Assembly (NCBI GenBank): GCA_965200355.1
Contig: OZ241351.1
Location: forward strand, 1,564,163-1,628,162
DNA: 64,000 bases
Reading direction: 5' to 3'
Source of the DNA: an uncultured Candidatus Binatia bacterium
Lineage (GTDB): Bacteria; Desulfobacterota; Binatia; Bin18
A model generated the notes under the pieces. It was not told the DNA's origin and did no database searches. It saw nothing but the letters and a program-made list of their open reading frames with translations. Below are positions 3,483 to 51,641 of the stretch, one piece after another. The stretch's first letter is position 1. Every line of letters begins with the position of its first letter. Position numbers and translations under genes: made by a program.

Positions 3483-6131
3483 TTAGAACTCGAAGCCGGC
3501 CCGCAGATAGTAGAACCCGCCGTTGAAGCCGTAGGGCGAGGTTTCCGGGTATTTCAGGCCGGCACCAGCCGCTTGCGGGTTCCTGCGCGGGTACTGATCA
3601 AAGATGTTTTCCGCGCCAAAGGCGACGGTCGCCGCCTGCATAAACGGCAGGTTCAGGAAGGTGTACGAGAGTTCCATATCGACCAGAAAGCGCTCGCCGG
3701 CATTAAAGCCGAAGCTGCCGTCGGTCGGGTAGTCGCGGAAACGGTCGTAGAAATACAACCGGGACAGGAAGCGCCACGGCCCCCAGTTGTGGTCGGCTGT
3801 CAGCGAGAACCGGAACTGCGGCAGGCCCTCTTCGATTTGCCGTACCAGCTTATCACTGATGAACTCTGGGGTGCGGCTGTCCACTTCGGTCTTATTCCAG
3901 TTGCCGACGAGCGTGAACTGCGTAAAGCCAGCCACCGATTGCAGCGGGTAGCTCGCTACCACGTCGATGCCCTGGGTGGTGGTGTCGAAGTCGTTGGTGT
4001 AGAAGCGGAGCACCGATATCTGGTTCGGCCCGACCACGGCGTCGAATTCTGCCCGGCTGATGCCCCGCTTGGCGAGTTCGTCGGCCACATTAAAGCGGCT
4101 GCTGCGAACGATGCGGTCCTGCATCTTGATACGATAATAATCGACGGTGACATCGACATCGGCCACGTTGAAGACAAGGCCGGCCGAATAGTTGACAGAT
4201 TTTTCTGGCGTCAAATCGCTGGCGCCGAAGAAGACCGAAGCCGGATGGTAGGCCGGAAAGGTGGCGTCGTCCACTAACAGGCCGTCTGAAAACGACGTCG
4301 TAATTTTGTTCACATTGGCTTGGCCGGGTGTGGGGGCGCGGAAGCCCGAGCTGACCGCTCCGCGCACGGCCAGCATCTCCACCGCCTGCCAGCGGGCCGA
4401 CACCTTCCCGTTGACGGACTCGCCGATTGGATCGTCAAAGTTCTCATACCGGCCGGCCACGCCCAGGGTCAGGGACCGAATCACTTCGGCCTCCAGGTCC
4501 ATATACAGGGCGTAATTCTTCCGCTCATAGTCACCGACGATATTGGGTCCGAATCCGGTAAACCCGTTCGAGCCAACGCCCAGCCCCTGCGGCCCGAAGC
4601 GGTCGAAGTCGGCATACCAGGAGTTTTCGCCCCCGAGTTTCACCTCATATTCTTCAATGTGATACTCGAAGCCGAACGCCATGTTCAGGTCGGAGTAGAG
4701 GAGGCTGCCGAGGTCCACGGGCCGGGAGATGTCCAGATTGAACGTCTTTTCGGTTTGGGAGACACCGCCCGGTCGGTACTCGGTTGGGATGGCGGTCCGC
4801 ATATCGGCCAACTGCGGGTTGATGGTGTTGAGCATGAAATAGTCCACGCTGTTCTCGCCGAAGTAGGCGCTCACATCGTAATACCAGCCGTTGAGCAGGG
4901 CGGAGGCGCTTTCCAGGGTTCCGGTCAGGCCAAAGGCGATGCTCCAGTCCTGCACGTAGCCGCCGAAGCGGGGAGTAAAACCGCCGGGAAAGCGCTCGAT
5001 GAACGAAAAGCAGTCCGGGCCGTTATCGGCAACTTCTCCAAATTGGGGCACGTTGCCGCGGAGAGGAATATCGCGACAGCCGCCCGACCTGCCGTCGGGC
5101 GACAGGTCAATCACCTTGACGGTGGGGGTGCCGTCTTCCAGCGAGTCGCCCCTGAAGACCCCCCCACGGGTATGAGGATTACGGAAATAGAAGCCACCCT
5201 CGACCTTGCGCTCGGCATAATTGCCAAAGGCGTACAGCCGGCTGTTGATCTCCTCCAAGTCCAAGCCGAGGTTGCCGAAGAATTTGTAGTCGTATTGCAC
5301 CTCTGGCGCGCCCCAAATCTGGGCCGCCGGCCGCCGCACGTGTTCGTTCCCGGCCTCAATCAGCCCGCGCGCATCGCTGCGTTGCACGCTGCGGCTGGTC
5401 TCGTCGGCATTCAGAAACTCGAAGCTGAAGTTGGCAAAGCCGTGCTCGGTCAGGGGCACGCCCAGATTGGCGGCCACTTGCACCTTGTCGCCGTCTCCGT
5501 GGTAGTTCTGGCCATAGCTGGTCTGGACGCTCAGCCCCTCGGTGTCTTCGCGCAGCTTGAAGTTCATCACGCCGGCAATGGCGTCCGAGCCATATTGAGC
5601 CGCGGCCCCGTCGCGCAGCACCTCAACCCGCTCCAGGGCAATGGACGGGATCGTGGAAATGTCGGCCCCCTGCGCTCCCCTGGAGTTCGGAGACCCCAGG
5701 AAATTGATCACCGACCCACGGTGGCGGCGTTTGCCGTTGACCAGCACCAGGGTGGAGTCCGGCGGCAACCCGCGTAGCGTGGCTGGTCGCACGAAGGTGG
5801 ACTCGTCGCTGATGGGTTCCTGGCCGACATTATAAGACGGCACGGTGGCCGACAGCAGGGAGTCCATGTCCCGAATGCCGTAGGTCTGCAAGTCTTCGCC
5901 CTGAATAACATCCACCGGCGCCGGCGAATCCTGGGCCGAACGACCCGCCACACGGGAGCCGACCACGCGTAGGTCGCCCAAGTCTATGATATCTGTTGAT
6001 GCCGCCGCCTCCGTCTCTTGAGCCGCGGCTGGTTCTTGCTGGTTCGTGTCTTGCGCTTCAGCCGCAGAGACACCCATCACGGTCAACACACTCACCAAAA
6101 GGCCGACCTGCCACCACTTCAGCTTTCTCAT
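3483..6131 (-). CDS. TonB-dependent outer-membrane receptor (882 aa), intact
   Basis: N-terminal signal peptide (MRKLKWWQVGLLVSVLTVMGVSAAEA). Plug motifs (DLQTYGIRDMDSLL, TLVLVNGKRR). Long barrel region. C-terminal aromatic ...LRAGFEF. Strong SD GAAGGAGG 8 nt upstream of the ATG at 6131. Confidence 0.9.
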   Translation of the reverse strand: MRKLKWWQVGLLVSVLTVMGVSAAEAQDTNQQEPAAAQETEAAASTDIIDLGDLRVVGSRVAGRSAQDSPAPVDVIQGEDLQTYGIRDMDSLLSATVPSYNVGQEPISDESTFVRPATLRGLPPDSTLVLVNGKRRHRGSVINFLGSPNSRGAQGADISTIPSIALERVEVLRDGAAAQYGSDAIAGVMNFKLREDTEGLSVQTSYGQNYHGDGDKVQVAANLGVPLTEHGFANFSFEFLNADETSRSVQRSDARGLIEAGNEHVRRPAAQIWGAPEVQYDYKFFGNLGLDLEEINSRLYAFGNYAERKVEGGFYFRNPHTRGGVFRGDSLEDGTPTVKVIDLSPDGRSGGCRDIPLRGNVPQFGEVADNGPDCFSFIERFPGGFTPRFGGYVQDWSIAFGLTGTLESASALLNGWYYDVSAYFGENSVDYFMLNTINPQLADMRTAIPTEYRPGGVSQTEKTFNLDISRPVDLGSLLYSDLNMAFGFEYHIEEYEVKLGGENSWYADFDRFGPQGLGVGSNGFTGFGPNIVGDYERKNYALYMDLEAEVIRSLTLGVAGRYENFDDPIGESVNGKVSARWQAVEMLAVRGAVSSGFRAPTPGQANVNKITTSFSDGLLVDDATFPAYHPASVFFGASDLTPEKSVNYSAGLVFNVADVDVTVDYYRIKMQDRIVRSSRFNVADELAKRGISRAEFDAVVGPNQISVLRFYTNDFDTTTQGIDVVASYPLQSVAGFTQFTLVGNWNKTEVDSRTPEFISDKLVRQIEEGLPQFRFSLTADHNWGPWRFLSRLYFYDRFRDYPTDGSFGFNAGERFLVDMELSYTFLNLPFMQAATVAFGAENIFDQYPRRNPQAAGAGLKYPETSPYGFNGGFYYLRAGFEF

Positions 6132-6151: not shown

Positions 6152-6340
6152 AACTTCTACAAGCCTTTGCCAACTTCTACAAGCCTTTGCCAACTTCTAC
6201 AAGCCTTTGCCAACTTCTACAAGCCTTTGCCAACTTCTACAAGCCTTTGCCAACTTCTACAAGCCTTTGCCAACTTCTACAAGCCTTTGCCAACTTCTAC
6301 AAGCCTTTGCCAACTTCTACAAGCCTTTGCCAACTTCTAC
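6152..6340. repeat. Perfect 20-bp tandem direct repeat (unit CTTCTACAAGCCTTTGCCAA), ~9.5 copies, in the divergent intergenic region between the TonB receptor and hpnJ
   Basis: Counted directly: AAGCCTTTGC recurs at 6161, 6181, ... 6321 (9 times) with exact 20-bp period. The array begins ~20 nt upstream of the receptor start codon. Confidence 0.95.
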
Positions 6341-6410: not shown

Positions 6411-7853
6411 ATGCGGACATTGTTCTTGAATCCACCTGCGTATGAAAACTTCGATGGAGGCGCCGGCTCACGCTATCAGGCGACTCGGGAGGTCTGGTCG
6501 TTCTGGTACCCGACCTGGCTGTGCTATCCGGCCGGCATGATTGACAACAGCCGCGTTCTGGACGCCCCGCCCGAAGGCTTGAATCAGGCCCAGACCGTTG
6601 AAATCGCCCAAGCGTACGATTTTGTTGTGCTGCACACCAGTACCCCGTCGGTCAAACTGGATGCGCAGACCGCGGAGTTAATAAAAGAAAAGAATCCGGC
6701 CTGCCACATCGCCTTTGTGGGCGGTCAGGCCACGGCTGAGACGGAGAAGACCTTACAGATTTCTGAGGCCATTGATATCGTCGCGCGAAAAGAGTTTGAC
6801 TACTCCATGAAGGAAGTCGCTGAGGGCTGGGAGTGGAAAGATATCCGCGGCATCAGCTATCGTCAGGACGGACACATCCATCACAATCTTGACCGTCCGA
6901 CGCTGACCAATGAAGAGCTTGACCAATTGCCCTTTGTCACCCAGATTTATGATCGGGATTTGGACTTCCGCAAGTATAACAGCCCGTATTGCCAGTATCC
7001 GTATGTGTCGTTATACACCGGCCGGGGCTGTCCGGCGCGCTGTACGTTTTGTCTGTGGCCGCAGGTGACCACCGGCCATTCCTACCGCACCCGCTCGGTG
7101 GGCAATGTCATTGAGGAAGTGCAGGAAATGCAGCGCCTCTTTCCAGGGATGAAAGAAGTCTTCTTTGATGACGACACGTTTACGGCCGACCCGAAACGCG
7201 CCCGTGAGATCGCCAAAAAAATGGGCCGTCTCGGCCTGTGCTGGTCCACGAATGCCCGCGGCAATGTTGACTACGAGACCCTCAAGGTGCTGAAAGATGG
7301 CGGGCTGCGGCTGTTTGTGGTCGGCTATGAGTCGGGCAACGCTGCCATTCTCAAAAATATCAAAAAAGGCGTGGCCCTCGAAACCTCGCGGCGGTTTACG
7401 CGGGACTGCCACCAGCTTGGTATCCTGATCCACGGCACCTTTATTCTGGGCCTGCCGGGAGAAACCCGTGAGACCATGCAGGAGACCATGCGTTTCGCCC
7501 GGGAGATGAATCCAGAAACCATTCAGGTCTCCTTGGCTTCCCCCTATCCTGGCACCGCCTTCTACGATTTCGCCCTTGACAACGGCTATATCAAGGCCGA
7601 GGACATGGTGGGTGAGTCGGGCTATCAGCAGTGCGTGATTAACTATCCCAACCTGTCCGGGGAAGAAATTTTTGAAACGGTTGAGAAATTTTACCGCTCG
7701 TACTACCTCCGTCCGCGCTATATCTTCAAAGCCGTCAAAAAGATGGCGCGCGACCCGGAGGAGCGCAAACGGATGTGGCAGGAAGGCAAAGATTTTTTCC
7801 GTACCATGCGCAAACGGCGGGAGATGAACGTCTCGTCTTCTCCGGCGGTCTAG
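6411..7853 (+). CDS. hpnJ: Hopanoid-biosynthesis-associated B12-binding radical SAM protein HpnJ (cyclitol-ether/ring-contraction enzyme)
   Basis: 480 aa. N-terminal B12-binding-like domain plus radical SAM core (YTGRGCPARCTFC). The conserved C-terminal region is typical of the HpnJ family. Immediately followed by a GT2/GT21 glycosyltransferase (hpnI) and a YdjC-family gene (hpnK), the canonical hpnIJK context. Confidence 0.75.
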   Translation: MRTLFLNPPAYENFDGGAGSRYQATREVWSFWYPTWLCYPAGMIDNSRVLDAPPEGLNQAQTVEIAQAYDFVVLHTSTPSVKLDAQTAELIKEKNPACHIAFVGGQATAETEKTLQISEAIDIVARKEFDYSMKEVAEGWEWKDIRGISYRQDGHIHHNLDRPTLTNEELDQLPFVTQIYDRDLDFRKYNSPYCQYPYVSLYTGRGCPARCTFCLWPQVTTGHSYRTRSVGNVIEEVQEMQRLFPGMKEVFFDDDTFTADPKRAREIAKKMGRLGLCWSTNARGNVDYETLKVLKDGGLRLFVVGYESGNAAILKNIKKGVALETSRRFTRDCHQLGILIHGTFILGLPGETRETMQETMRFAREMNPETIQVSLASPYPGTAFYDFALDNGYIKAEDMVGESGYQQCVINYPNLSGEEIFETVEKFYRSYYLRPRYIFKAVKKMARDPEERKRMWQEGKDFFRTMRKRREMNVSSSPAV

Positions 7854-7878: not shown

Positions 7879-9108
7879 ATGGTGTCTGACTTCCATGTCC
7901 CACAAGAAGACACCTGCCCCAACGCTGGAGATTGGGAGAGGATGGGGACGTTTATTCTGCTGATCGTCTTCTGGTTCCTGGCCGGCCTGCTGTGCTGTGC
8001 CCTGGCCTATTGCCTCTTTAGTGTCTATGCGGCCTGGCGCTTTTTCCGCTCGCGTCCGACGCCTCCCACTCCCCTGCCCCCGGTCACGATGCTCAAGCCG
8101 CTCAAAGGCGCACCGCCCGACCTGTATGACAGTCTGGCAAGCTTTTGCCAGCTCGATTACCCGACTTTTCAAATCCTGTGCGGCGTCCGTGACCCCGATG
8201 ACCCGGCCGCGGCGGTTGTGACCAAAGTGCAGCACGACTTTCCCCAGTGCGATATTTCCCTGGTTGTTGCGCCGGCGGTGATTGGGACCAATTACAAGGT
8301 CAGCACCCTGCACCACCTGACCGCCCAGATGAAGTATGACTATCTGGTCATTACCGATAGTGATGTCCGGGTTGCCCCCGACTACTTGCGAACAATCATC
8401 CCCCCCTTGACCCAGCCGGAAACCGGACTGGTGACCTGTGTGTATCGCGGCGGTTCCCGCCGGCCCGTACCAGCCCTGCTGGAATCGCTGATGATTAACA
8501 CGACTTTTACCACCCAGGTCGTGGTCGCCAGCCAGGTAGAACAGCCCTCGTATGCCTTTGGCGCAACCATGGCGCTTAAACGCGCCGGCCTCGACGCGAT
8601 TGGGGGGTTTGCCCGGCTGTCTGATTATCTGGCAGACGACTATTATCTTGGATATTTCATTGCCCAGGCTGGGTATCAGATTCGCGTGCTGCCCGCTGTC
8701 GTGGAAACCCGCCCAGACGCGGGTTCGTTGCGCGAGTTGTTTACTCATCAGTTGCGTTGGGCGCGGACGCAACGCAACTGTCGGCCCGGCGGGTATATCG
8801 GGACGGTGGTGACGTTTGGCACGGTCTGGGCCGGCGTCAGCTTGGGCTGTTTTTGGGCGTCGGTCGAGATGACGGTTCTTGCCCTCAGCGTCCTCGGGCT
8901 ACGCCTGCTGAGCGCTGCTCTGATGAACGCGGTTTTTCTCCAATCGAGGCTGCCGCGGTCGGCTCTTCTGCTGACCCCACTCACCGACCTGATCTCTTTT
9001 GTGGTCTGGTGTGCCAGCTTGTGGGGCAACACGGTCCGTTGGCGGGAGTATACCTTCCGGCTCAAAAAAGATGGGCGTATGGTGCGCGTCAGTTCAGTTA
9101 AGCCCTGA
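7879..9108 (+). CDS. hpnI: Hopanoid-associated family-2/21 glycosyltransferase HpnI (N-acetylglucosaminyl transferase onto bacteriohopanetetrol)
   Basis: N-terminal TM helix. GT-A fold motifs (YLVITDSDV DxD-like, QLRWARTQ). Membrane C-terminus. The start may be the ATG at 7942, which has a GGGAGAGG SD. Gene order hpnJ-hpnI-hpnK. Confidence 0.7.
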   Translation: MVSDFHVPQEDTCPNAGDWERMGTFILLIVFWFLAGLLCCALAYCLFSVYAAWRFFRSRPTPPTPLPPVTMLKPLKGAPPDLYDSLASFCQLDYPTFQILCGVRDPDDPAAAVVTKVQHDFPQCDISLVVAPAVIGTNYKVSTLHHLTAQMKYDYLVITDSDVRVAPDYLRTIIPPLTQPETGLVTCVYRGGSRRPVPALLESLMINTTFTTQVVVASQVEQPSYAFGATMALKRAGLDAIGGFARLSDYLADDYYLGYFIAQAGYQIRVLPAVVETRPDAGSLRELFTHQLRWARTQRNCRPGGYIGTVVTFGTVWAGVSLGCFWASVEMTVLALSVLGLRLLSAALMNAVFLQSRLPRSALLLTPLTDLISFVVWCASLWGNTVRWREYTFRLKKDGRMVRVSSVKP

Positions 9109-10023
9109 TGCTTGTGTTCCCGCACGCAGCCCAGGCAGGGCGCAGTACGGCACGAGTCGAATGTCCTGTTGAACGAGCAGCTCGCGCACGGTCGGATTCG
9201 TCAGCGCGGCCAGCTCAACATCTCGGCGATAGGTCGGCGTCCAGCGTTCGACCTCGGGACACGGCCGGCCGGCCGGATGGCAGTACAGTTCCGTGACACC
9301 GGCTTGGAGGCGCGGGAACAGGCCCCGCAGATAGGGGGCATCCAGCGCGCCGCTTTGATGCAGGCCAAACAGATGGTCCGGGTAGGGGATGCCGGCCTGC
9401 CGCAGCTTTTTTGCTGTTATCCGGGCGAGGGGGGTAAAGACCACAGACTCTCCGCGTTTCCTCAATGCCTGGCGTGGGTCAATTGTCAGGCTGGTCGCCA
9501 GGTCTTCGCGGGTCAGACGCATAGCCGGGATAGGGTATTCCTGGGCGAGGGCCAGAAGAACGTCCATAACGACCGGGTGCATATGGATGTTGAGATGGCC
9601 ATCAATATGGGACAGGGGTAAGCCGGTGTTCAGAAAACGTTCAATCTGAGCACGGCACTCGACCCGGATTTCTTGCCGCGCCCGTGGGGAAAAATAATAC
9701 TGCAAGCCGGACCGGATTGGAGCCTGGCTGAAATTCCCCTGACTATCGGTGATCGCGCGTAGGTGCGGTTTGGAGAGCACCGCCCGCCCCTGGACTAAGG
9801 TCAGATGCAGGCCAACCCCGAGGCTTGGTGTTGAGCGGGCGAGGTCAACCGCTGCCTCCCAGGCCGGCGCCGTGACCATGAGGCTGGTATTGGTCAGAAT
9901 GCCCTGCTGATGGGCGTGTAATATGCCGGTATTGACCTGAGTGGACAGGCCGAAGTCGTCTCCGTTGACGATGAGATAGCGGGCGGCGGGGCCGGCCGGC
10001 TCCGCTCTTGCCTTTAGCGGCAC
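9094..10023 (-). CDS. hpnK: YdjC/ChbG-family carbohydrate deacetylase, HpnK-like (deacetylation of GlcNAc-BHT)
   Basis: LIVNGDDFGLS...NTGILHAHQQGILT N-terminus and H/D metal-binding residues are typical of the YdjC (ChbG) family. Convergent with hpnI, overlapping it by 15 nt. Confidence 0.7.
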   Translation of the reverse strand: MPLKARAEPAGPAARYLIVNGDDFGLSTQVNTGILHAHQQGILTNTSLMVTAPAWEAAVDLARSTPSLGVGLHLTLVQGRAVLSKPHLRAITDSQGNFSQAPIRSGLQYYFSPRARQEIRVECRAQIERFLNTGLPLSHIDGHLNIHMHPVVMDVLLALAQEYPIPAMRLTREDLATSLTIDPRQALRKRGESVVFTPLARITAKKLRQAGIPYPDHLFGLHQSGALDAPYLRGLFPRLQAGVTELYCHPAGRPCPEVERWTPTYRRDVELAALTNPTVRELLVQQDIRLVPYCALPGLRAGTQASGLN

Positions 10024-25746: not shown

Positions 25747-28700
25747 TATGGCCGACCAGAGCCAGCCGGAGGGCGCGCTCGTCCAATCTGAGAAAACGGC
25801 CGCTCGTCAGTCTTCCTTCCCGGAGCCAGGCGTTCTGATGGACCAGCGCTTCTTCCAACAGCCTGTTTTGAATTCGCCCTACGAGTATCCCAGGCAGCAC
25901 TGGGAGCTTGATGAGCAGGGACAGCCAACCCAGCGGATCATCGCAACCCGCCGCCGGGCCGAGTTTATTACGCCCATTCCAAAGCCGCGCAAACGCAAAG
26001 GCTCCGCGCACCAGCAGTCACTCGCCTTAGATGAAGGCCACGGACTCTCAACCGCTGAGCAGCAGTACGACCCGACCTCCATTATCACCGCGCTCCGTCG
26101 TCAGGTGGACCAGTGGCGCAGCCGACCGAATCCGGCCGACTGGCAGGTGACACCCGAGACCGCTCGTCTGCTGCAACACTGGAGACAGCATCAGTTCAGC
26201 ACTATCCGGCCCTTCTTCTGTCAAGTGGAAGCCGTGGAAACCGCGATCTGGCTGACCGAGGTTGCTCCGAGAGCGGGCAAGACCGGCAAGGATTTTCTGG
26301 CACATCTCACCAACGCCAATACCGACGCCAATCCGGGTTTACAGCGCGTGGCGCTCAAGCTCGCCACCGGCGCGGGCAAGACCACGGTTCTTGCCATGCT
26401 GATCGCCTGGCAGACCATCAACGCGGTCCGCCGCCCAACGAGCAGAAGATTTACCCGTGGCTTTCTGGTCGTTACGCCCGGTTTGACGATCCGTGACCGG
26501 CTGCGCGTCCTGCAACCGAACGACCCGGACAGCTATTACGCCAGCCGGGAGCTGGTGCCGGGCGATATGCGCGGCGACCTCAGCCGGGCCAAAATCGTCA
26601 TTACCAACTATCACGCCTTCAAGCGGCGTGAGCGCATGGCGCTTTCAAAAGGCGGTCGCTCGTTGCTCCAGGGGCGCGGGGCCGCCTTGAACACCTTGGA
26701 GACCGAAGGGCAGATGCTTCAGCGCGTCATGCCCGACCTGATGGGCCTGAAAAATATCGTGGTGATGAACGATGAGGCCCACCACTGCTACCGCGAGAAA
26801 CCGGAAAAAGATGACGAAGGAATACTGAAAGGCGACGAGCGAAAAGAAGCGGAGAAAAACAATGAGGCGGCGCGGCTGTGGATTTCTGGCCTGGAAGCCG
26901 TGGGCCGCACGCTGGGTCTGGCGCGGATTATCGACGTATCGGCCACACCGTTCTTTCTGCGCGGCTCGGGCTATGCCGAGGGCACGCTGTTTCCCTGGAC
27001 GATGAGCGACTTTTCCCTCATGGACGCCATCGAATGCGGAATTGTCAAGCTGCCCCGGGTGCCGGTGGCAGACAACATCCCTGGCGGCGAAATGCCGAAA
27101 TTCCGCAATCTGTGGCAACATATTCGACCCCGGATGCCGAAAAAGGGCCGGGGCAAAGCCAAGACCCTTGACCCGCTCAGCCTGCCGGTTGCACTCCAGA
27201 CCGCCCTGGACGCCCTGTACGGCCATTACCAACAGACCTCTGCGTTATGGCAGCAGAAGGGCATTCAGGTGCCGCCCTGTTTTATCGTGGTGTGCAATAA
27301 CACCTCGACCTCCAAGCTGGTGTATGACTATATCTCCGGCTTTTGGCGGGACAATGACGACGGTTCACCGACACTCGAGCATGGCCGCTTGCCGCTGTTC
27401 CGAAACCATGAGGCCGACGGGACTCAATTGGCGCGTCCGCGTACCCTCCTCATCGACAGCCAGCAACTCGAATCCGGGGCTGCCCTGGACACCAATTTTC
27501 GGGCGATGGCGTCAGATGAGATAGCACGCTTCCGCCGCGAGATTATCGAACGGACCGGCGACCATCGCCAGGCCGAAAACCTGTCTGACCAAGACCTGCT
27601 GCGGGAAGTCATGAACACGGTCGGCAAGCCGGGCCGGTTGGGCGCGTCGATTCGTTGCGTGGTGTCGGTTTCCATGCTGACCGAAGGCTGGGACGCCAAC
27701 ACGGTCACGCACGTGTTAGGCGTGCGCGCCTTTGGCACGCAATTATTGTGCGAACAGGTCATTGGGCGGGCCTTGCGCAGGCAATCCTACACGCTGAATG
27801 AGAAGGGGCTGTTGAATGTGGAATACGCCGATGTGCTGGGGATTCCGTTTGACTTTACCGCCAAGCCGGTTGTTGCTCCGCCCCAAACGCCCCGCGAGAC
27901 CGTGCAGGTTCAAGCGGTGCGGCCCGACCGCGACCATTTGGCCATTCAGTTTCCCCGGGTCGCCGGCTATCTCGTTGAACTGCCGGAGGAACGACTCAGC
28001 GTGCAGTTCAACGCCGATTCCGTTCTGGAATTGACCCCAGACCTGGTTGGCCCCTCAATGACCCGGAACGCGGACATTATTGGCGCGGATGTTGACCTGA
28101 GCCTGAAGCATCTGGACAACCTGCGTTCCTCAACCGTGGCGTTCCACGTGACCAAGCGCCTGCTCTACACCAAATGGCGCGACCCTGGCGCAGCACCGAA
28201 GCTCCACTTATTCGGGCAGTTGAAACGCATTTCGGGCAGTTGAAACGCATCACCACGCAATGGCTGGCGACCTGTCTGGTCTGCAAAGGCCGGACCTACC
28301 CCGCTCAACTCCTGTATCAGGAGCTGGCCGATATGGCCTGCGAGCGCATTACTGCTGGTATCACCCGTTCCGTCATCGGCGACCGGCCCGTAAAAGCCGT
28401 GTTGGACCCCTACAATCCCACCGGCTCGACCACGCACGTGCACTTCCATACCTCCAAAGCGCACCGCTGGCAGACGGATGCCCGGCGGTGTCATATCAAC
28501 TGGGTCATCCTCGACAGCGATTGGGAGGCCGAATTCTGCCGGGTGGTTGAGTCGCACCCCGCGGTGCGGGCCTATGTGAAAAATCACAACCTCGGCCTGG
28601 AGGTGCCCTACCGCTCCGGCTCGACCCTGCGGACCTATATTCCCGACTTTATCGTGCTGCTGAACGACGGGCATGACGACCCGTTGCATCTGATTGTTGA

Positions 28701-28854
28701 GATCAAAGGCTATCGGGGCGAGGACGCCAAGTACAAGAAGGCGACGATGGAGACCTACTGGATTCCCGGCGTGAATAATCATGGGCAGTATGGCCGCTGG
28801 GCGTTTGCCGAGTTTACTGCGGTTTATGATATTGAGCGGGAATTGGGGATGTGA
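25747..28854 (+). pseudogene. res: Type III restriction enzyme Res subunit (SF2 DEAH helicase + C-terminal PD-(D/E)xK nuclease), frameshifted by a 20-bp tandem duplication
   Basis: Walker A (KLATGAGKTT) and DEAH (VVMNDEAHHCY). C-terminal PDF...IVEIKG nuclease motif lies in ORF 28174..28854. The two ORFs join seamlessly if one copy of TTCGGGCAGTTGAAACGCAT is removed. Confidence 0.8.
28211..28250 (+). repeat. Perfect 20-bp tandem duplication (TTCGGGCAGTTGAAACGCAT x2) inside res, creating TGA at 28241-28243
   Basis: Read directly: 28211-28230 equals 28231-28250. Confidence 0.95.
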
Positions 28855-28885
28855 GGGGTTAGTGGATAGTGGGGAGTGGGGAGCG
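28855..28885. repeat. GGGGTTAGTGGATAGTGG repeat copy immediately 3' of res (same family as the repeats flanking the four-helix-bundle cassette)
   Basis: TGAGGGGTTAGTGGATAGTGGGGAGTGGGGA directly follows the res stop codon. Confidence 0.7.
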
Positions 28886-31190
28886 ATTCTTCTACGAGGC
28901 GATTGAAGGCTGTCTGTGTTCCTCCGGCAAAGCGCTTGACGGTCGGTAAGTAATAGATTATCCGCCCCTTGAGAGTACGCTGTGCTCCTCGCGATCACGA
29001 GCCGGCCGAAATCCTGGGGCTTTTTTATGCTTGCCCGCTGGACACAATTCTATGCCTCGAAAAGCGAAGAAGACGGCCAAGACGGTTGAAACTCTGCGGC
29101 ACCCCGACGCCTCGCGTAAGAACATCCCCACGGCTGAGTTTCAGGCGGTGATGCGTAAGGACGAACAGAGTCCGATTCAGGTTGCCTATGAGCGGCGCAA
29201 CCGCGACCTGGACCCGTAACTGGTGTGGCGGGGGAAGGATGAACAGGACGGGGCGGATTTGGTGGTGCAGGCTCCGCCGTTGTACATTCAGGAGAAGGTG
29301 CATCCGAAGGTGTTGATTGACGATTTGCGGCAGCGCAGCAAGGAGACCGGCGACGCGAGCGCGCAGCCGGATTTGTTCGCGGATTTTAACGGGCTGCCGA
29401 GCGCGGACGCGCAGACCGAGTTTTATCAGCACGACGCCAACTGGTCGAACCGGATGATTTTGGGCGATAGCTTGCAGGTGATGGCGTCGCTGGCCGAACG
29501 CGAGGGCCTGCGCGGCAAGGTGCAGTGCATTTACCTTGACCCGCCTTACGGCATCAAGTTCAACAGCAACTTTCAGTGGTCAACCACGAGCCGCGATGTC
29601 AAGGACGGGAAGGCAGACCACATCACGCGGGAGCCGGAGCAGGTGAAGGCGTTTCGGGATACGTGGCGGGATGGGATTCATTCGTATTTGACGTATTTGC
29701 GGGACCGGCTGACGGTGGCGCGGGATTTGTTGGCGGAGAGCGGTTCCATCTTCGTGCAGATTGGGGATGAGAATGTCCATCGGGTGCGGGCGGTGATGGA
29801 GGAAGTTTTCGGACAGGACAACCATATTGCAGATATTGTTGTCCTGAAGACAAGTAGCCAAACGTCCCAATACCTTGCTGGAATAGCTGACTATGTAGTT
29901 TGGTATGCCGTCGATAAGGAACGCTTGAAGTACCGGCAACTGAACAAATTCAAAAAGCTTGGAGAAACAGGAACAACCCAATACCTATGGGAACTATCGC
30001 TAGACTTACAGGAATCGCGGATATCTAAGGAACGGAATCCCAGAGGGCATGTGTTTGCCGCTGACAATCTCTCCAGTCAATCCGGCGGTGAAACGACTAG
30101 GTTTGAATTCACCGTATCAGGAAAGATATTTCGGGTCGCTAGAGGAGGCTGGAAGACGAACTTGCAAGGAATGAGGCGTCTGGAGAAAGCTCACAGACTC
30201 AAGCCAATTGGTAAATCCTTGATGTATCGGAGATTTTTGGACGATTTTCCAGTCTATCCTATCGCTAATGTCTGGGACGATGTCTTGGCGACAGGATTCT
30301 CTGAACAGAAGGTATATGTTGTTCAGAGTTCTCAGAAGCTAGTCCAACGCTGCGTCCTCATGACCACCGACCCCGGCGACCTCGTTCTTGACCCAACCTG
30401 CGGTTCTGGCACGACGGCCTACGTTGCTGAACAGTGGGGCCGGCGGTGGATTACGATTGATACGTCTCGCGTCGCCTTGGCCCTGGCCCGTGCCCGTATC
30501 ATGGGTGCTCGCTATCCCTACTACCTGCTCGCCGACAGCCGCGACGGCCAAATCAAAGAAGCCGCGCTGGCCCGCAAAGCTCCCTCGGAAGTGCCCATAT
30601 ACACCGACATCCGCCAAGGCTTCGTGTACGAGCGCGTCCCCCACATCACCCTCAAGGCCATCGCCAACAACGCCGAAATCGACGTAATATGGGAGAAATG
30701 GCAGGAGACGATTCAGCCGCTGCTTGAACAACTCGGAGCCATCGTCGGCGATTCGCCCCTACCGGAATGGGAAGTACCAAGAGACCTGCCGGACCCGTGG
30801 CCGCCGGAGGCTGCGCCGCTGCACGAACAATTCTGGACGGCGAGGGTGGCGCGTCAGCGCGAAATCGACGCCTCCATCGCGGCCAAAGCCGACTACGAGT
30901 ACCTCTACGACAAGCCCTACGAGGATAAGAAAAAAGTTCGGGTGGCCGGGCCGTTTACGGTCGAAAGCCTGTCTCCGCACCGGGTGTTGGGTGTCGATGA
31001 AAACGACGAACTCATCGACCGTGTAGCTGAAAGCACGGTCGGGTACGGCGAAAAGCAGGACTTCGCCGCAGTGATTCTGGAAAACCTCAAAACCGCCGGC
31101 GTGCAGCAGGCCCACAAAGACGACAAAATTACCTTCACCGCAATCACCCCCTGGCCGGGCGATTTGATCTGCGCCGAAGGCCGGTTTGAT

Positions 31191-31310
31191 AGTGGAGTAG
31201 GGGAGAAGGGAGAGTGGATAGAGGGGAAGTGGATAGTGGATAGAAGGGAAGTGGATAGTGGCGAGCAAGACAGCGAAAAACTATCCACTCTCCCCTCATC
31301 ACTATCCACT
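31191..31310. repeat. GTGGATAG-rich hairpin element (4 direct GTGGATAG copies opposed by CTATCCAC copies) lying in-frame inside mod
   Basis: GAGTGGATAGAGGGGAAGTGGATAGTGGATAGAAGGGAAGTGGATAGTG ... AACTATCCACTCTCCCCTCATCACTATCCACTG; a MITE-like inverted repeat. Confidence 0.75.
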
Positions 31311-31608
31311 GAAAATCGCGGCGCGATTTTCATCGGCCCGGAGTTTGGTACGGTCTCGCGCCCGGATTTGGTGGCTGCGGCTCGTGAAGCCGCGGAGGGC
31401 GGTTTTGACGCGCTGATTACTTGCGCCTTCAATTACGACGCGCGCTCGTCCGAGTTTGACAAGCTCGGTCACATTCCTGTGCTCAAAGCTCGCATGAACG
31501 CCGACCTGCATATGGCCGACGATCTGAAGAACACTGGCAAGGGCAATTTGTTCGTCATTTTTGGCGAGCCGGATATTACCGTGGCGAGTGAAGAGTGGTT
31601 AGTGGATA

Positions 31609-32001
31609 GTGTCGGAAACAGAATTGCTCCGTATGACATCTTTACGCTCGTATCGGGACTTGACGGTTTGGCAGAAATCAATGGACTTGACGGTGAGGAT
31701 TTACGCGCTGACGCAGCGCTTTCCTGCCGACGAGAAATATGGGATTACCTCACAAATGCGGCGGGCGGCGTCCTCGATTCCGGCGAACATCGCGGAAGGG
31801 CAGGCAAGGCGCACGACGGGGGAGTTTCTTCAGTCGCTTGGCATTGCGCGGGGCTCGCTGGCAGAACTGGAGACCTTTCTGACCTTATCCGAAAGGCTGG
31901 AGTTGATCGACAAGAAGGCTTCCGAGACCTTGTTGAACGACTGCGCCGAGATAAACAGAATGCTCTACGCCCTGATGCGCTCACTAACCCCTATCCACTA
32001 A
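31609..32001 (+). CDS. Four-helix-bundle protein (TIGR02436 / 23S-rRNA-intervening-sequence protein family)
   Basis: 130 aa with YRDLTVWQKSMDLTVRIYALTQRFPADEKYGITSQMRRAASSIPANIAEGQARRTTGEFLQSLGIARGSLAELETFL, characteristic of the IVS-encoded four-helix-bundle family. It lies in a frame different from mod and is bounded by GGTTAGTGGATAGTG (31596-31610) on the left and a CTAACCCCTATCCAC tandem array on the right. Confidence 0.8.
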   Translation: MSETELLRMTSLRSYRDLTVWQKSMDLTVRIYALTQRFPADEKYGITSQMRRAASSIPANIAEGQARRTTGEFLQSLGIARGSLAELETFLTLSERLELIDKKASETLLNDCAEINRMLYALMRSLTPIH

Positions 32002-32071
32002 CCCCTATCCACTAACCCCTAACCCCTATCCACTAACCCCTATCCACTATCCACTAACCCCTATCCACTAC
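31982..32071. repeat. Tandem array (~6 copies) of the 14-15-bp unit CTAACCCCTATCCAC (reverse complement GTGGATAGGGGTTAG)
   Basis: Read directly; forms the right border of the four-helix-bundle cassette. Confidence 0.9.
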
Positions 32072-32348
32072 TCTCAGGTCACGGTCCACGGGGTGGACGT
32101 ATATCCCAACACCGGCGAAATCCGTAGCGACAGTGCCGACGGCATTGCCTGCTGGTTTATCGACACCGACTACAACGAAGAGAGTTTCTTCGTTCGTCAC
32201 GCCTATTTCCTCGGTGCCAACGATCCCTATAAGGCGCTCAAGACGACCCTCAAAGCCGAGATTAACGCAGACGCCTGGGCAACCCTCAACCGCGACACCT
32301 CCCGCCCGTTCGCCAAACCGGAGTCGGGCCGGATTGCGGTCAAGGTCA

Positions 32349-32687
32349 TCAATCACCTGGGGGATGAGGTGATGAAGGTGTTTCGACTCGACTAAAGGCA
32401 TTCTCTCTCGTATCAAAAGTCAGAGATACCTGGGTGCCGAGCTGACGTAAAACCGCGTCTATCGTGCCGGCCTTGGTGGCATGGTCCGGGTTCAGCATAC
32501 GTCGCACCTCGTTTTCGCCAACGTCCAGGGCGCGGGCGAGGCAACGTTGTGAGATGTTGGCCTGACGATAGGCTTCGTAGAGGGCCGCTTTGAGGACGAT
32601 CTGTAATGGCGGGATGACCAACGGCCGCCGCGTGCTGGCGCGTGTGGGCTCGGGTAAGGCCCGGCCCTCGCAGACCGTCGTTGCCAT
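32349..32687 (-). CDS. HicB-like antitoxin / XRE-type HTH protein; upstream reading frame stays open to 32813 without a canonical start
   Basis: C-terminal HTH (ISQRCLARALDVGENEVRRMLN). The in-frame upstream extension ...GRFIVTFPDFGWGATDGATCEEALEEAKDLLRELMATT resembles the HicB N-domain but contains no ATG or GTG. No hicA-like partner was recognised. Confidence 0.4.
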   Translation of the reverse strand: MATTVCEGRALPEPTRASTRRPLVIPPLQIVLKAALYEAYRQANISQRCLARALDVGENEVRRMLNPDHATKAGTIDAVLRQLGTQVSLTFDTRENAFSRVETPSSPHPPGD

Positions 32688-48170: not shown

Positions 48171-49478
48171 TCACGGCTTTATCAAGCCAATCACGTATTC
48201 CTGGTGCATTCGTTCCTCGATTTGTGAATGTCTTTGTGACCCCCAGCGGGCCGGCATCATGCGTTTGTCGCGGGCCAGATGGCGAACGCCAATGCCGGTC
48301 AACTCAAAGCCAACTTTTTCACCGAGGGCGGCCAAGCCTTTATGGGTTTCGACATCCAGACCGCGGAGGTTTGAGGTGCCAACAACAATCACTGCTGGCT
48401 TGCCTTTTTTCAAAACGCGCCCCATCTCCCCGATTACCGCGGCCATCTCACCGAAATAGCGCCGCAGGGCCGCGGCCTTTTTTGCGTCTCGTTCGGCCAG
48501 TTGTGTCAGCGTTGTTTCGCATTGTCGGGGTAAATCGTTGAATTGAGTCGGGCCGGCCGTGTCGTGTCCTAGATAGTGCGCGCGAATCCTGGACAGGGTG
48601 TCGATAGGCCAACCAAACCAGACCAGCGAGAACTTATGCGCCCGCATGTAATCAATCGCGTTGTTGGCATAGGGTGGTGAGGTCACGATGAGATCAACGC
48701 TGGCAGACGGCAAGCCAGTGTTGGCCGCGCCGGCCGCCAGAACGCGGGCAGGGTGCTGTGGTGTCGTCGTATAGGCGGCATTGGTGCTGAGGGTCTGTTT
48801 CAGTCGCTTGGTGAATTCGACGAACCCCGAGTTGGGTTTTTTGTCAACGACCCTATGCGGGCGCGTATGCGCCAAGTCGCGGGCCAGCGAAACGCCGCCG
48901 GATTTTGCAATAATGGTTGACGAAAAAACAATCTTGAAGAAAGTTTGCAGCCCCTCTGGTTGGACTTTTTCGATGCCTTGCAACAGCGCGAGGAGTTCCA
49001 ACTGCTGTTGGGGGACAAACCAGAAATCAATAAACGCGCGCGTTTTCGGATCAAAACGCCGGTCCAGGGCGTATTCCAGTTGGTCACGGTCTCGGTGCAG
49101 GGCACGTTGGGCTGCATGGATCAACCCGGTTCCGGTTTCCCATGCGTAGGCTGCGTTGACAGGACGCAGCTTGGCCGTCGCAATCAGGCGCGCGAGGGGG
49201 TCAATATCACAGCCGATGGCCCGCCGGCCCAGACGCGCGGCCTCTACCAGGGTCGTGCCTGAGCCGGACATGGGATCAAGCACGACCTCGCCGGCGTCCG
49301 TGAAAGATTCGATGAAAAACTGTGGGAGTTGTGGCGGAAATTTAGCGGGAAAGGGATGCCACGTATGAGTGGTGTGCTTTTGGTTTGCGCCGTGGAAATC
49401 CAGGTCGGCGCGTAAGGCTGCCGGCAAGCGGGTACGGCAATGAGCGTGCAGACGGTTTCCTGGAGTACTCGTCATCTC
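48171..49478 (-). CDS. DNA amino-methyltransferase (N6-adenine or N4-cytosine; motif I then motif IV order, alpha-class), apparently orphan
   Basis: Start set at MTSTPGN; the upstream part of the ORF is low-complexity and overlaps the protease gene. Motif I DPMSGSGTT, motif IV SPPY (IVTSPPYANNAIDY). No restriction-endonuclease candidate adjacent. Confidence 0.7.
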   Translation of the reverse strand, partial: EMTSTPGNRLHAHCRTRLPAALRADLDFHGANQKHTTHTWHPFPAKFPPQLPQFFIESFTDAGEVVLDPMSGSGTTLVEAARLGRRAIGCDIDPLARLIATAKLRPVNAAYAWETGTGLIHAAQRALHRDRDQLEYALDRRFDPKTRAFIDFWFVPQQQLELLALLQGIEKVQPEGLQTFFKIVFSSTIIAKSGGVSLARDLAHTRPHRVVDKKPNSGFVEFTKRLKQTLSTNAAYTTTPQHPARVLAAGAANTGLPSASVDLIVTSPPYANNAIDYMRAHKFSLVWFGWPIDTLSRIRAHYLGHDTAGPTQFNDLPRQCETTLTQLAERDAKKAAALRRYFGEMAAVIGEMGRVLKKGKPAVIVVGTSNLRGLDVETHKGLAALGEKVGFELTGIGVRHLARDKRMMPARWGSQRHSQIEERMHQEYVIGLIKP

Positions 49479-49587
49479 GGAGGTGGTAAGCAGCTTTTTG
49501 TTTATCGGACCGTCGGGACCAGGCCTGAATTGCCCCGACGGCGGGAAAACCGTGCACAATGGAGCGTCAGGCGGTGAAACCGAGGAG

Positions 49588-50622
49588 CTACGTTGCCTGG
49601 AGCGCTTCTGCACTATCCGGGTTTTTGGGGGTGGGGGCCGGACGAAAATACCGCTCTCTGTCCGAGGAACGCACGGTAACGTCTTTGATCTCGGTCCCGT
49701 GGAGGAGGGTGAGGGTGATATCGGCCCCGGCCTCCCCAACCGCCCACAGCTTGCGATAGAAGTCGGCTTGGTCTTTGACCGGCTGACCGGCAACCTTGAG
49801 GACCAAATCGTTGATCTGCACCCCGGCTTGCTCTGCCGGCCCGTCCGGTGCCACAAACATGATAATCAGCTTATCGCGGAACTCCTCGGTAAAGAGTCCG
49901 AGCCAGGGCCGCGGGGCGGCCTTGGTGCGGCCGGTCCGAATCAGGTCGGTGAGGATGGGCTTGAGATGGTCAATCGGCACAAACATATTCCCGGCCAAAG
50001 ACTCCCGGCCGGGCAGGGCGTCATTGACTAACAGCGAGCCAATGCCCAGCAGCTTGCCGTCCGGTCCAATCAGCGCAGCGCCGGCATAGCGGGGATGTGG
50101 CGGGGCGGTGAAAATGGCGTCTTCGAGCAGGTATTCCCAATAGCCGGCAAATTCTCGCCGTGAGGTCACCAAAGTCGGGCGGACCGAAGCCGCATTGCTG
50201 TCGCTGGCAATAATGACTTCTGTCCGCTCAGCCAAGTCGGCAGACCTGCCAAGTGGCATGGGGGTCACGTTGAGGGGTTCGTTGGCGCGTAAAAGACCAA
50301 AACCGGTTTGGGTGTCATGGGCCACAACGGTGGCCAGGATGGGTTTCCCGTCTATGCCCGTGACCTCAACCCGGCGGGCTTCCATGACCAAATAGCCGAT
50401 GGTGAGAATATGCCCCTGGGTATCAATGACCACGCCGCTCCCGCTCCGTTGTTCCCCAAGAAACTGGGCCGTGCGCGCACTGGCCGGGACCTCAGCCCGA
50501 ATCGTCACCATGGCGGACAGGACATCGCTGGCGACGGGCTCCGGAACGGCCAACTGCGGGCTGAACACCGGGGTCAGGAGACCGACCCAGAACAGCAGTA
50601 ACGACGATGGGCGGGTATTCAT
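49588..50622 (-). CDS. HtrA/DegP-like trypsin-fold periplasmic protein with one PDZ domain; catalytic Ser (and probably Asp) substituted
   Basis: Signal peptide, trypsin-fold, PDZ (GVQINDLVLKVAGQPV). The position aligned to GNSGGPL reads YAGAALIGP (Ser to Ala). Confidence 0.55.
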   Translation of the reverse strand: MNTRPSSLLLFWVGLLTPVFSPQLAVPEPVASDVLSAMVTIRAEVPASARTAQFLGEQRSGSGVVIDTQGHILTIGYLVMEARRVEVTGIDGKPILATVVAHDTQTGFGLLRANEPLNVTPMPLGRSADLAERTEVIIASDSNAASVRPTLVTSRREFAGYWEYLLEDAIFTAPPHPRYAGAALIGPDGKLLGIGSLLVNDALPGRESLAGNMFVPIDHLKPILTDLIRTGRTKAAPRPWLGLFTEEFRDKLIIMFVAPDGPAEQAGVQINDLVLKVAGQPVKDQADFYRKLWAVGEAGADITLTLLHGTEIKDVTVRSSDRERYFRPAPTPKNPDSAEALQAT

Positions 50623-50624
50623 AA

Positions 50625-51641
50625 TCAGACTCTCTGTGCAGACTGCTCTGCTTCTAGCGCCAGGTTTGTGGAAGAGTCAAGAGTGAGGCCGGGCGAGAGA
50701 GGCTGCTCGGCAGCATGGTGGAAACTGGCTGTTTTCGGGTCATACCCGCGGGCGGTCAGGGTGATCTGAAAACGCGGTCGCCCGTTCGCCGTGCCGTATG
50801 ACACGATCCGATACAAGTGGTAGCGTGAGCGCCGCTGTGGCCGCCGACCAATCGCCGCGGAGGCGGGGACCCCGACAACCGGAATCGGCCCCCAGGGTCC
50901 GGGGATACTCGCCCTGACGGTGCGGTGCACATGGCCGTGCAGAATAAGCTCCGCGCCAGTTTTGGCGAGCACGGCCCGTAAGTCAGCCGCGTCGGTGAGG
51001 CGGCGGCGGGCCGTGAGGGCGATGGGTTGGGGCGGATGGTGAATGAGCACGACCCGACACAAGGGCGTGTTTGCCAAGGCGTGCAGGAGCCGCTCAAGTC
51101 GGTCGAGTTGCGTTTGACCGACCGTGCCTGAAGCAGAGAAGGGGGCTGTTGCGCGCGCGGTTGAGACGCCGACCAGGGCGACCGGTCCGCAGGTCCGCAG
51201 GGTTGGAAACTCGGTTGGCGGAAAGTCTGGGGGCAGCCGCGTCGGACCTGACCACGTATCCGGCAGGATATGCGAGCGCATATAGTCGCCCCAATATGCC
51301 CACGGACAAGATTCGCTCCGGCGCGTATAGGTGTCATGGTTGCCGGGGATCAGGGAAACGCGCTGTGGGCCGCCCATTTTTTGCAACCACGGGAGGGAGG
51401 CGGAGAACTCGTCTTCGAGCGCCACATTCGTCAGGTCGCCGGTAATGACCACATGGCCCGGCCCTTGGGTGTGTAAATCGTCAATCAGCGCGGCCAGGAC
51501 TTCGGGGCGGTATTCCTTGCGACGCCGCAAGGACCACGACACGACGCCCAAGACGCGCTTGTTCAGAATATCTCCGGGACGCCGGACCCGGACCGGGGTG
51601 ACGTGCAGGTCTGATAAATGGGCAAGCGTAAAGGCTGGCAT
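50625..51641 (-). CDS. Calcineurin-like metallophosphoesterase
   Basis: LSDLHV...VVITGDLTN...GNHD...HGHVH motif series. Confidence 0.8.
   Translation of the reverse strand: MPAFTLAHLSDLHVTPVRVRRPGDILNKRVLGVVSWSLRRRKEYRPEVLAALIDDLHTQGPGHVVITGDLTNVALEDEFSASLPWLQKMGGPQRVSLIPGNHDTYTRRSESCPWAYWGDYMRSHILPDTWSGPTRLPPDFPPTEFPTLRTCGPVALVGVSTARATAPFSASGTVGQTQLDRLERLLHALANTPLCRVVLIHHPPQPIALTARRRLTDAADLRAVLAKTGAELILHGHVHRTVRASIPGPWGPIPVVGVPASAAIGRRPQRRSRYHLYRIVSYGTANGRPRFQITLTARGYDPKTASFHHAAEQPLSPGLTLDSSTNLALEAEQSAQRV

Follow-up and report, generated by a model that had tools for sequence, protein, structure and literature searches.

A probable recently pseudogenised Type III-like restriction-modification operon with a 20-bp tandem duplication in res

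Type III restriction-modification (R-M) systems such as EcoP1I and EcoP15I comprise two genes, one encoding the helicase-nuclease Res and the other a beta-class N6/N4 methyltransferase, Mod, with a variable central region. Cleavage by classical enzymes of this type depends on ATP and on two unmethylated sites in inverse orientation, and one strand is methylated. Mod recognises the target, directs and stabilises Res, and is needed for restriction (PMC3874151). The res-mod locus described here lies on the forward strand of the window, which is the whole stretch of 64,000 nucleotides that was analysed, and resembles these systems in its two components; by analogy with them, its Mod would be expected to recognise the target and its Res to depend on Mod (PMC3874151, PMC4490356). 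Unlike in EcoP1I and EcoP15I, where mod precedes res, the gene order is res then mod both in the window and in the orthologous loci examined, in which mod is found 0.1-4.7 kb downstream of res wherever a mod match is present. Mod is also much larger here (about 940-1140 aa), and Res lacks a detectable PDB relative (no sequence match at E<=0.01) and resembles the PADLOC REase_III models weakly (16-24 bits). On the methyltransferase side, the Mod ortholog of a close relative (L003) matches the PADLOC model MTase_III PDLC03632 with 1432 bits, and the Pfam N6_N4_Mtase domain is present in the mod gene of the window.

The family to which Res is assigned is that of the BPTD_3080 restriction endonucleases (NCBIfam NF046055), with which it shares its architecture: an N-terminal region is followed by an SF2 helicase and then by a PD-(D/E)xK nuclease at the C terminus. 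Conceptually repaired Res scores 1360 bits against NF046055 over profile positions 1-966 of 970, where the equivalog cutoff is 800 bits, and it is the conceptually repaired protein alone to which this match applies. Pfam places ResIII at residues 181-351 of the repaired protein (32.6 bits) and RE_endonuc at residues 913-987, the latter with a borderline 23.2 bits that falls just below the cutoff of 23.4. Proteins of the BPTD_3080 type are very widespread and strongly conserved, with 74-82% identity among genomes labelled as belonging to more than 15 phyla; no biochemistry on the family was found in the literature. The locus in the window differs from the family in that both res and mod are interrupted, and instead of the unbroken coding sequence of a functional member its res carries a frameshift and the stop TGA 28241-28243.

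Two further groups of described loci are relevant because of the kind of mutation that they carry. In phase-variable Type III systems (phasevarions) a tandem-repeat tract within mod sets the reading frame, as is also the case in the window, and mutations of res are frequent as well among known phase-variable systems (PMC3874151); the MmyCI mod of Mycoplasma mycoides, for example, ends at a TAA owing to its repeat number (PMC3498834). However, the known tracts consist of 2-5-nt units near the 5' end of mod and vary in length from cell to cell, whereas the tract in the window has 7/14-nt units near the 3' end of mod, sits inside an inserted element and is accompanied by a separate nonsense codon. 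The pneumococcal cap3A and Ralstonia phcA loci, in turn, are alike in mutation type only: a short perfect tandem duplication within the open reading frame produces a frameshifted OFF allele, which could revert through exact loss of one copy (PMC11163986; 10.1101/2023.04.27.538605). At those loci both states are seen in cultures, with reversion restoring the phenotype, whereas the window shows the duplicated state only, and the system could not be regained by reversion of the duplication alone.

Judged from its sequence, the region 25748-32395 is very probably a recently pseudogenised Type III-like R-M operon of the BPTD_3080 family, with res followed by mod. As an event, such decay would be ordinary and of an already known kind; genomes often carry corrupted R-M genes (PMC4687349).

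The duplication in res

The 5' fragment of res (25748-28243, forward strand) has an 831-aa product consisting of the N-terminal region and the SF2 helicase/ATPase. Its reading frame was taken from ATG 25748; the first 30 residues are uncertain because in the orthologs the protein begins at the position corresponding to M31 (ATG 25838). Within the gene, TTCGGGCAGTTGAAACGCAT occurs twice, identical and head to tail, at 28211-28230 and 28231-28250 (TRF score 80, 100% match), so that the perfect 20-bp tandem duplication claimed in the original prediction is found in the letters as well as by TRF. Given the base composition of the window, a perfect 20-mer tandem repeat is expected by chance 1.3e-7 times per 64 kb. 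The only other perfect tandem repeats in the window with a unit of at least 12 nt are the heptamer tract of mod and, at 6152-6340, an array of a 20-mer; the array, perfect over 9.4 copies, lies in a promoter region.

The first copy (28211-28230) encodes FGQLKRI within a near-invariant motif, and the second (28231-28250), the inserted duplicate, is the source of a +20 (+2) frameshift and holds the premature stop TGA 28241-28243. The reading frame opened at ATG 25748 accordingly ends in ...LFGQLKRISGS*, and immediately before the stop it reads ...KLHLFGQLKRISGS. The downstream part of res (28251-28854) continues in the -1 frame, open to the natural stop TGA 28852-28854, and encodes ~200 residues of the C-terminal part, which include the PD-(D/E)xK motifs IPDF (nucleotide 28639, aa 958 of the repaired protein) and VEIKG (28696, aa 977). 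Since the duplication falls at residues 822-828, between helicase motif VI (QVIGRALRR, aa 670) and these nuclease motifs, the motor is parted from the nuclease, and the C-terminal nuclease domain is lost from the res product. The translation thus bears out the prediction that the frame shifts between the helicase and the PD-(D/E)xK domain and that this creates the stop at 28241. Deletion of one copy in silico gives an uninterrupted Res, as had been predicted, although of 1028 aa rather than the approximately 1029 aa given at the time. Apart from the duplication, res carries no lesion; besides IPDF, VEIKG and motif VI, the Walker A motif TGAGKT (aa 207) and the DEAH motif NDEAHH (aa 341) are intact.

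Comparison with orthologous res genes, which had been proposed as a check, gave a single copy without any indel at the site in all 82 of the loci, each within the near-invariant LFGQLKRI. The intact orthologs are 1018-1045 aa long, and repaired Res is 88-90% identical to them. The closest relatives, L002 and L003, share 89-90% identity at the protein and ~87% at the DNA level and have the locus in the corresponding chromosomal position, flanked by metH and a gene for an enoyl-CoA hydratase; their DNA at the duplication site reads CTATTCGGCCAGTTGAAACGCATCACC. Both copies in the window carry a lineage-specific synonymous GGG, and the duplication therefore arose within the lineage of the window. 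A one-copy allele of the strain was found neither in the protein database, which has no intact protein of >90% identity, nor in two metagenome scans with patterns allowing 0-20 nt between the flanks; the cluster members P0136-P0139, considered as candidates for such an allele, were rejected as belonging to other lineages. Disruption of res is also seen in 3 of the 82 fetched orthologous genes. A higher initial count, 6 of 78 orthologs with internal stops, was discarded in favour of this figure, as those stops were mostly artefacts of alignments that extend upstream of the true start.

As for the origin of the duplication, the junctions show no microhomology (0 shared bases), and no significant DNA structure or hairpin was detected at the site (folding z = -0.12 and +0.50); an origin by microhomology or by a hairpin was ruled out on the basis of these junction bases and z-scores. 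The duplication probably arose by a replication or repair error. An Rfam search of the window gave no matches. For UvrB, the nearest relatives that bear a name come from MAGs labelled Deltaproteobacteria (79%) and Candidatus Binatia (77%).

The lesions in mod

The true start of mod is ATG 29052, from which the 5' fragment (29052-29219, forward strand) runs for 55 codons to an in-frame TAA at 29217-29219, where the orthologs have CAG (Gln) in the invariant RNRDLDPQLVWRGKDEQ. Codon 56 is thus a nonsense codon that takes the place of the CAG of the invariant RNRDLDPQLVWRGK. Since two confident genes of this genome close with TAA, the codon is a genuine stop here, and an alternative genetic code for it was rejected on the same grounds. 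Shortly downstream, at GTG 29223, no Shine-Dalgarno sequence is found upstream of the codon. The main body of mod (29220-32015), in the frame of 29052, contains the N6_N4 methyltransferase domain and the variable target-recognition region and ends at TAA 32013-32015 inside a repeat tract.

This tract (31982-32070) is an expanded array of heptamers and 14-mers, with 13 heptamers of the types CACTAAC and CCCTATC, in which the frame of mod is lost. The conserved C-terminal domain follows at 32042-32395 up to the stop TAA 32393-32395; it is 87-90% identical to the orthologs and lies in a frame different from that of the body. In agreement with this, an orthologous Mod aligns by tblastn in frame 3 for residues 5-1030, as far as 32012, and in frame 2 for residues 1022-1138, at 32042-32389. 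In the closest ortholog, L002, the tract has about 5 heptamers, free of stops and in frame. Simulated changes of tract length showed that -14 or +7 nt rejoins the two mod frames, to give proteins of 1109 or 1116 aa provided that the TAA is repaired as well, while -7, +14 and -21 fail to do so.

The tract forms the C-rich arm of a larger in-frame insertion in mod (31581-32070), which replaces a 15-aa linker of most orthologs and is bounded by inverted heptamer-repeat arms, the G-rich one at 31581-31611 and the C-rich one at 31982-32070. In-frame insertions in mod with heptamer-repeat arms occur at one common site in orthologs from distant phyla, which is unusual. A further G-rich heptamer-repeat arm, GTGAGGGGTTAGTGGATAGTGGGGAGTGGGGAG, is located directly after the res stop, at 28851-28888.

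All three lesions, the duplication in res, the nonsense codon in mod and the frameshift in the mod tract, are present in identical form in a second assembly, the long-read contig L085, and the first two are also covered by the Logan short-read contig L001/L084. The exact length of the tract is backed by the two long-read assemblies (the window and L085), since the short-read contigs do not span it.

Alternative readings of the locus

Whether the duplication is a true feature of the genome can be judged from these independent data. The original prediction had held that read evidence of a single copy would point to an assembly artefact; at the level of assemblies no single copy was met with. The identical 40-nt sequence is found in the Logan assembly of run SRR33960552, where the 19-kb contig L001/L084 has two copies and 0 mismatches over 9.7-11.1 kb, and in ENA ERZ25068762, where the low-coverage long-read contig L085 has two copies, 0 mismatches and three 1-base indels over 8.5 kb. 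The exact 831-aa truncated product (P0057) likewise recurs in public databases, where four Logan contigs and one contig of 3.83 Mb carry it. In other runs with the same strain, single SNPs at other positions set the sequence apart from the window; the data sets are therefore independent rather than duplicates of one another, although the agreeing assemblies may share one study or site. In addition, a clean, perfect 20-bp duplication is atypical as an error of either platform. Against this, the general point that repeats are prone to mis-assembly stands without any specific support found for it here, and a genome that truly has one copy is almost certainly not the explanation. Scarcely more credible is the reading that a functional enzyme survives the duplication, either as a split enzyme with a nuclease fragment translated from ATG 28333 or as full-length Res with a 7-aa insertion made by programmed -1 frameshifting. 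An AGGAG at 28318-28322, 10 nt upstream of ATG 28333, and the 173-aa product that gene callers predict from this codon (P0135) would fit a split enzyme, yet the AGGAG and the ATG are codons of the YQELADM motif that is conserved in all orthologs. Recoding would call for signals that are not there, as 28211-28243 contains no slippery X XXY YYZ heptamer and no stimulatory structure. In either version the split or the insertion would sit in the most conserved linker motif, and Mod would be broken regardless.

The original prediction went further and interpreted the duplication as a reversible or slipped-strand route of inactivation that relieves self-restriction, without remarking on the lesions in mod. 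Under this reading the window would show the OFF state of a phase-variable res, selected for the relief from self-restriction that it gives, and if slippage or unequal recombination removed exactly one copy, res would return to ON. Elsewhere, perfect tandem duplications are known to revert with precision and to serve as switches, for example in pneumococcal cap3A (PMC11163986, citing Waite 2001) and Ralstonia phcA (cited in 10.1101/2023.04.27.538605); phase variation is frequent among Type III systems (PMC3874151), res is otherwise free of lesions with its catalytic motifs kept, and a slip of one 14-mer would bring the mod tract into frame. However, the mod nonsense codon lies in an invariant motif beyond repair by slippage and persists at any repeat number, so that a contingency locus at this site would have no functional ON state, and together with the tract frameshift it would leave the system defective even after the duplication had reverted. 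Nor does the site look hypermutable: it consists of just two copies of a 20-mer, without microhomology or structure, rather than of a simple-sequence tract, and none of the 82 orthologs has a repeat or length variation there. A duplication with a frameshift of the cap3A type is indeed present, but every assembly covering the site (the window, L001/L084 and L085) is in the duplicated state, and no one-copy allele of the strain was found; at the mod tract the window and L085 are identical as well, without length variation among the assemblies that span it, all of these comparisons being between assemblies only. Finally, a Type III Res without Mod has no target recognition (PMC3874151), which leaves nothing to relieve; self-restriction therefore does not occur in a mod-null cell, and loss of res need not have been selected. 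The reversible part of the prediction is thus not supported, and a switch of this kind is very unlikely. Highly improbable, too, is an operon kept OFF by a pair of locks that slippage could open, one being the 20-bp duplication in res and the other the 7/14-nt tract in mod, a reading that requires the TAA at codon 56 of mod to be bypassed (by re-initiation, for instance at GTG 29223) or to be a later secondary hit. If it were true, the heptamer-armed insertions would be a previously undescribed contingency repeat element, Type III-like and outside host-adapted pathogens, that travels with a widely transferred mod gene.

Age and meaning of the probable decay

The reading that we favour is that of a dead operon. 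A spontaneous, lineage-specific 20-bp tandem duplication would have been inserted after the codons for ...LFGQLKRI, and the resulting +2 shift of res would stop translation three codons on, which would leave an 831-aa helicase-only fragment without nuclease. The strain would then have fixed three disabling lesions, each independent of the others: this duplication, the nonsense codon 56 of mod and the repeat-tract frameshift that cuts off the conserved C-terminal domain. As far as can be read from the sequence, neither restriction nor cognate methylation is likely to be made now. Slippage is in principle able to revert two of these lesions, namely the duplication in res and the frameshift in the mod tract, and contingency-like behaviour is therefore conceivable, though improbable.

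Several measures bear on the age of the decay. Repaired Res deviates at 6 of 444 near-invariant columns, against 0 in L002 and 1 in L003 (median 2, maximum 9 in 73 sequences), and repaired Mod at 8 of 422, against 4 in L002 and 3 in L003 (median 4, maximum 14). For res, dN/dS is 0.117-0.120 in pairs that contain the window and 0.059 between the intact relatives L002 and L003, at a dS of about 0.5, and for the Mod C-terminal domain the corresponding values are 0.09-0.12 with the window and 0.05 between intact relatives. These ratios and the modest excess of deviations indicate that most of the divergence took place under purifying selection and that constraint was lost only recently. Together with the low dN/dS (0.12), the absence of a second lesion in res suggests that the R-M system decayed recently. 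The lesions in res and mod could have arisen in either order: the substitution excess is similar in both genes, and the lethality argument is inapplicable to Type III-type systems (PMC3874151).

Taken together, the locus provides a clean and well-documented example of the death of an R-M operon, in a lineage with close relatives that retain an intact system in the corresponding chromosomal position. For annotation, the three res and mod fragments that are called as separate proteins should be recorded as two pseudogenes, and the case cautions that a lesion which looks reversible is to be read together with the partner gene. Only two parts are perhaps worth more work, namely mod's heptamer-armed in-frame insertions and the unusual degree to which this R-M family is conserved from phylum to phylum.

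Heptamer-armed insertions and the repeat tract in mod

The methyltransferase gene mod, which lies 3' of res, carries in-frame, stop-free insertions bordered by arms of inverted heptamer repeats that translate to 'SGQWLV...' and '...PLSLTTDH'. The long insertion spans positions 31581-32070 of the window, and further sites lie at 31188-31311 and 28851-28888. An insertion is found at the same mod site in the close relative L002 (12133-12590) and in the ortholog loci L012, L006, L031, L043, L072, L034 and L060, the genomes with the long insertion at this identical site being labelled as Nitrospira, Planctomycetota, Latescibacterota and others. In orthologs, the long insertion comprises 152-161 amino acids in place of a 15-residue linker, IDILDAEDGQIQVKV, which is found in 48 orthologs. 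The nucleotide identity of the insertion (66-85%) exceeds its amino-acid identity (37-77%), and within the 64-kb window tracts of at least three such heptamers are confined to the restriction-modification locus. The insertion may be a repeat element that moves together with the restriction-modification module, and may resemble the palindromic elements of Rickettsia.

The frame of mod is lost in a heptamer/14-mer tract at 31982-32070, and removal of exactly one 14-mer or addition of exactly one 7-mer would regain the frame leading to the conserved C-terminal domain. This geometry is contingency-like; the tract has one and the same length in both assemblies that read through it.

Start codon of res and the res-mod spacer

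As called, res starts at ATG 25748, which adds 30 residues (25748-25837) relative to the start conserved in orthologs, MDQRFFQQ, at ATG 25838. Since stop codons interrupt the corresponding upstream sequence in several res orthologs, this sequence comparison makes ATG 25838 more likely than ATG 25748 to be the true start. In relatives, the short stretch that separates res from mod is a hotspot for insertions: L002 carries the toxin-antitoxin pair HicA/HicB there (9065-9360), and L003, the other close relative, has a PIN-domain gene (9135-9814). The spacer of the window (28855-29051) measures only about 200 nt and contains a heptamer arm.

A 20-mer array and a second methyltransferase

A perfect array of the 20-mer AACTTCTACAAGCCTTTGCC, 9.4 copies long, occupies positions 6152-6340 in a divergent intergenic (promoter) region flanked by a TonB-dependent receptor gene on the minus strand (3483-6131) and a B12-binding radical SAM gene on the plus strand (6411-7853). 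Nine copies are also present in the long-read contig L087, and the short-read contigs L088 and L089 end within the array. Its period of 20 bp is that of the res duplication, the units being unrelated.

A second DNA methyltransferase, Type II-like, is encoded on the minus strand at about 48171-49856 (PADLOC MTase_II, PDLC03322, E=1.5e-44; Pfam N6_N4_Mtase), its listed ORF overlapping that of an adjoining trypsin-PDZ protease (49588-50622). As the Pfam-scanned adjoining ORFs, this protease and a metallophosphoesterase (50625-51641), include no restriction enzyme, the methyltransferase may be an orphan.

Conservation of the Res family

A literature search by the Res family name, BPTD_3080, gave no hit. 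Across loci L004-L083, whose genomes bear the labels of over 15 different phyla, the family retains 74-82% amino-acid identity. Judged from these sequences, such unusually high conservation would imply either that the family has often been transferred horizontally in recent times or that it is very strongly constrained.
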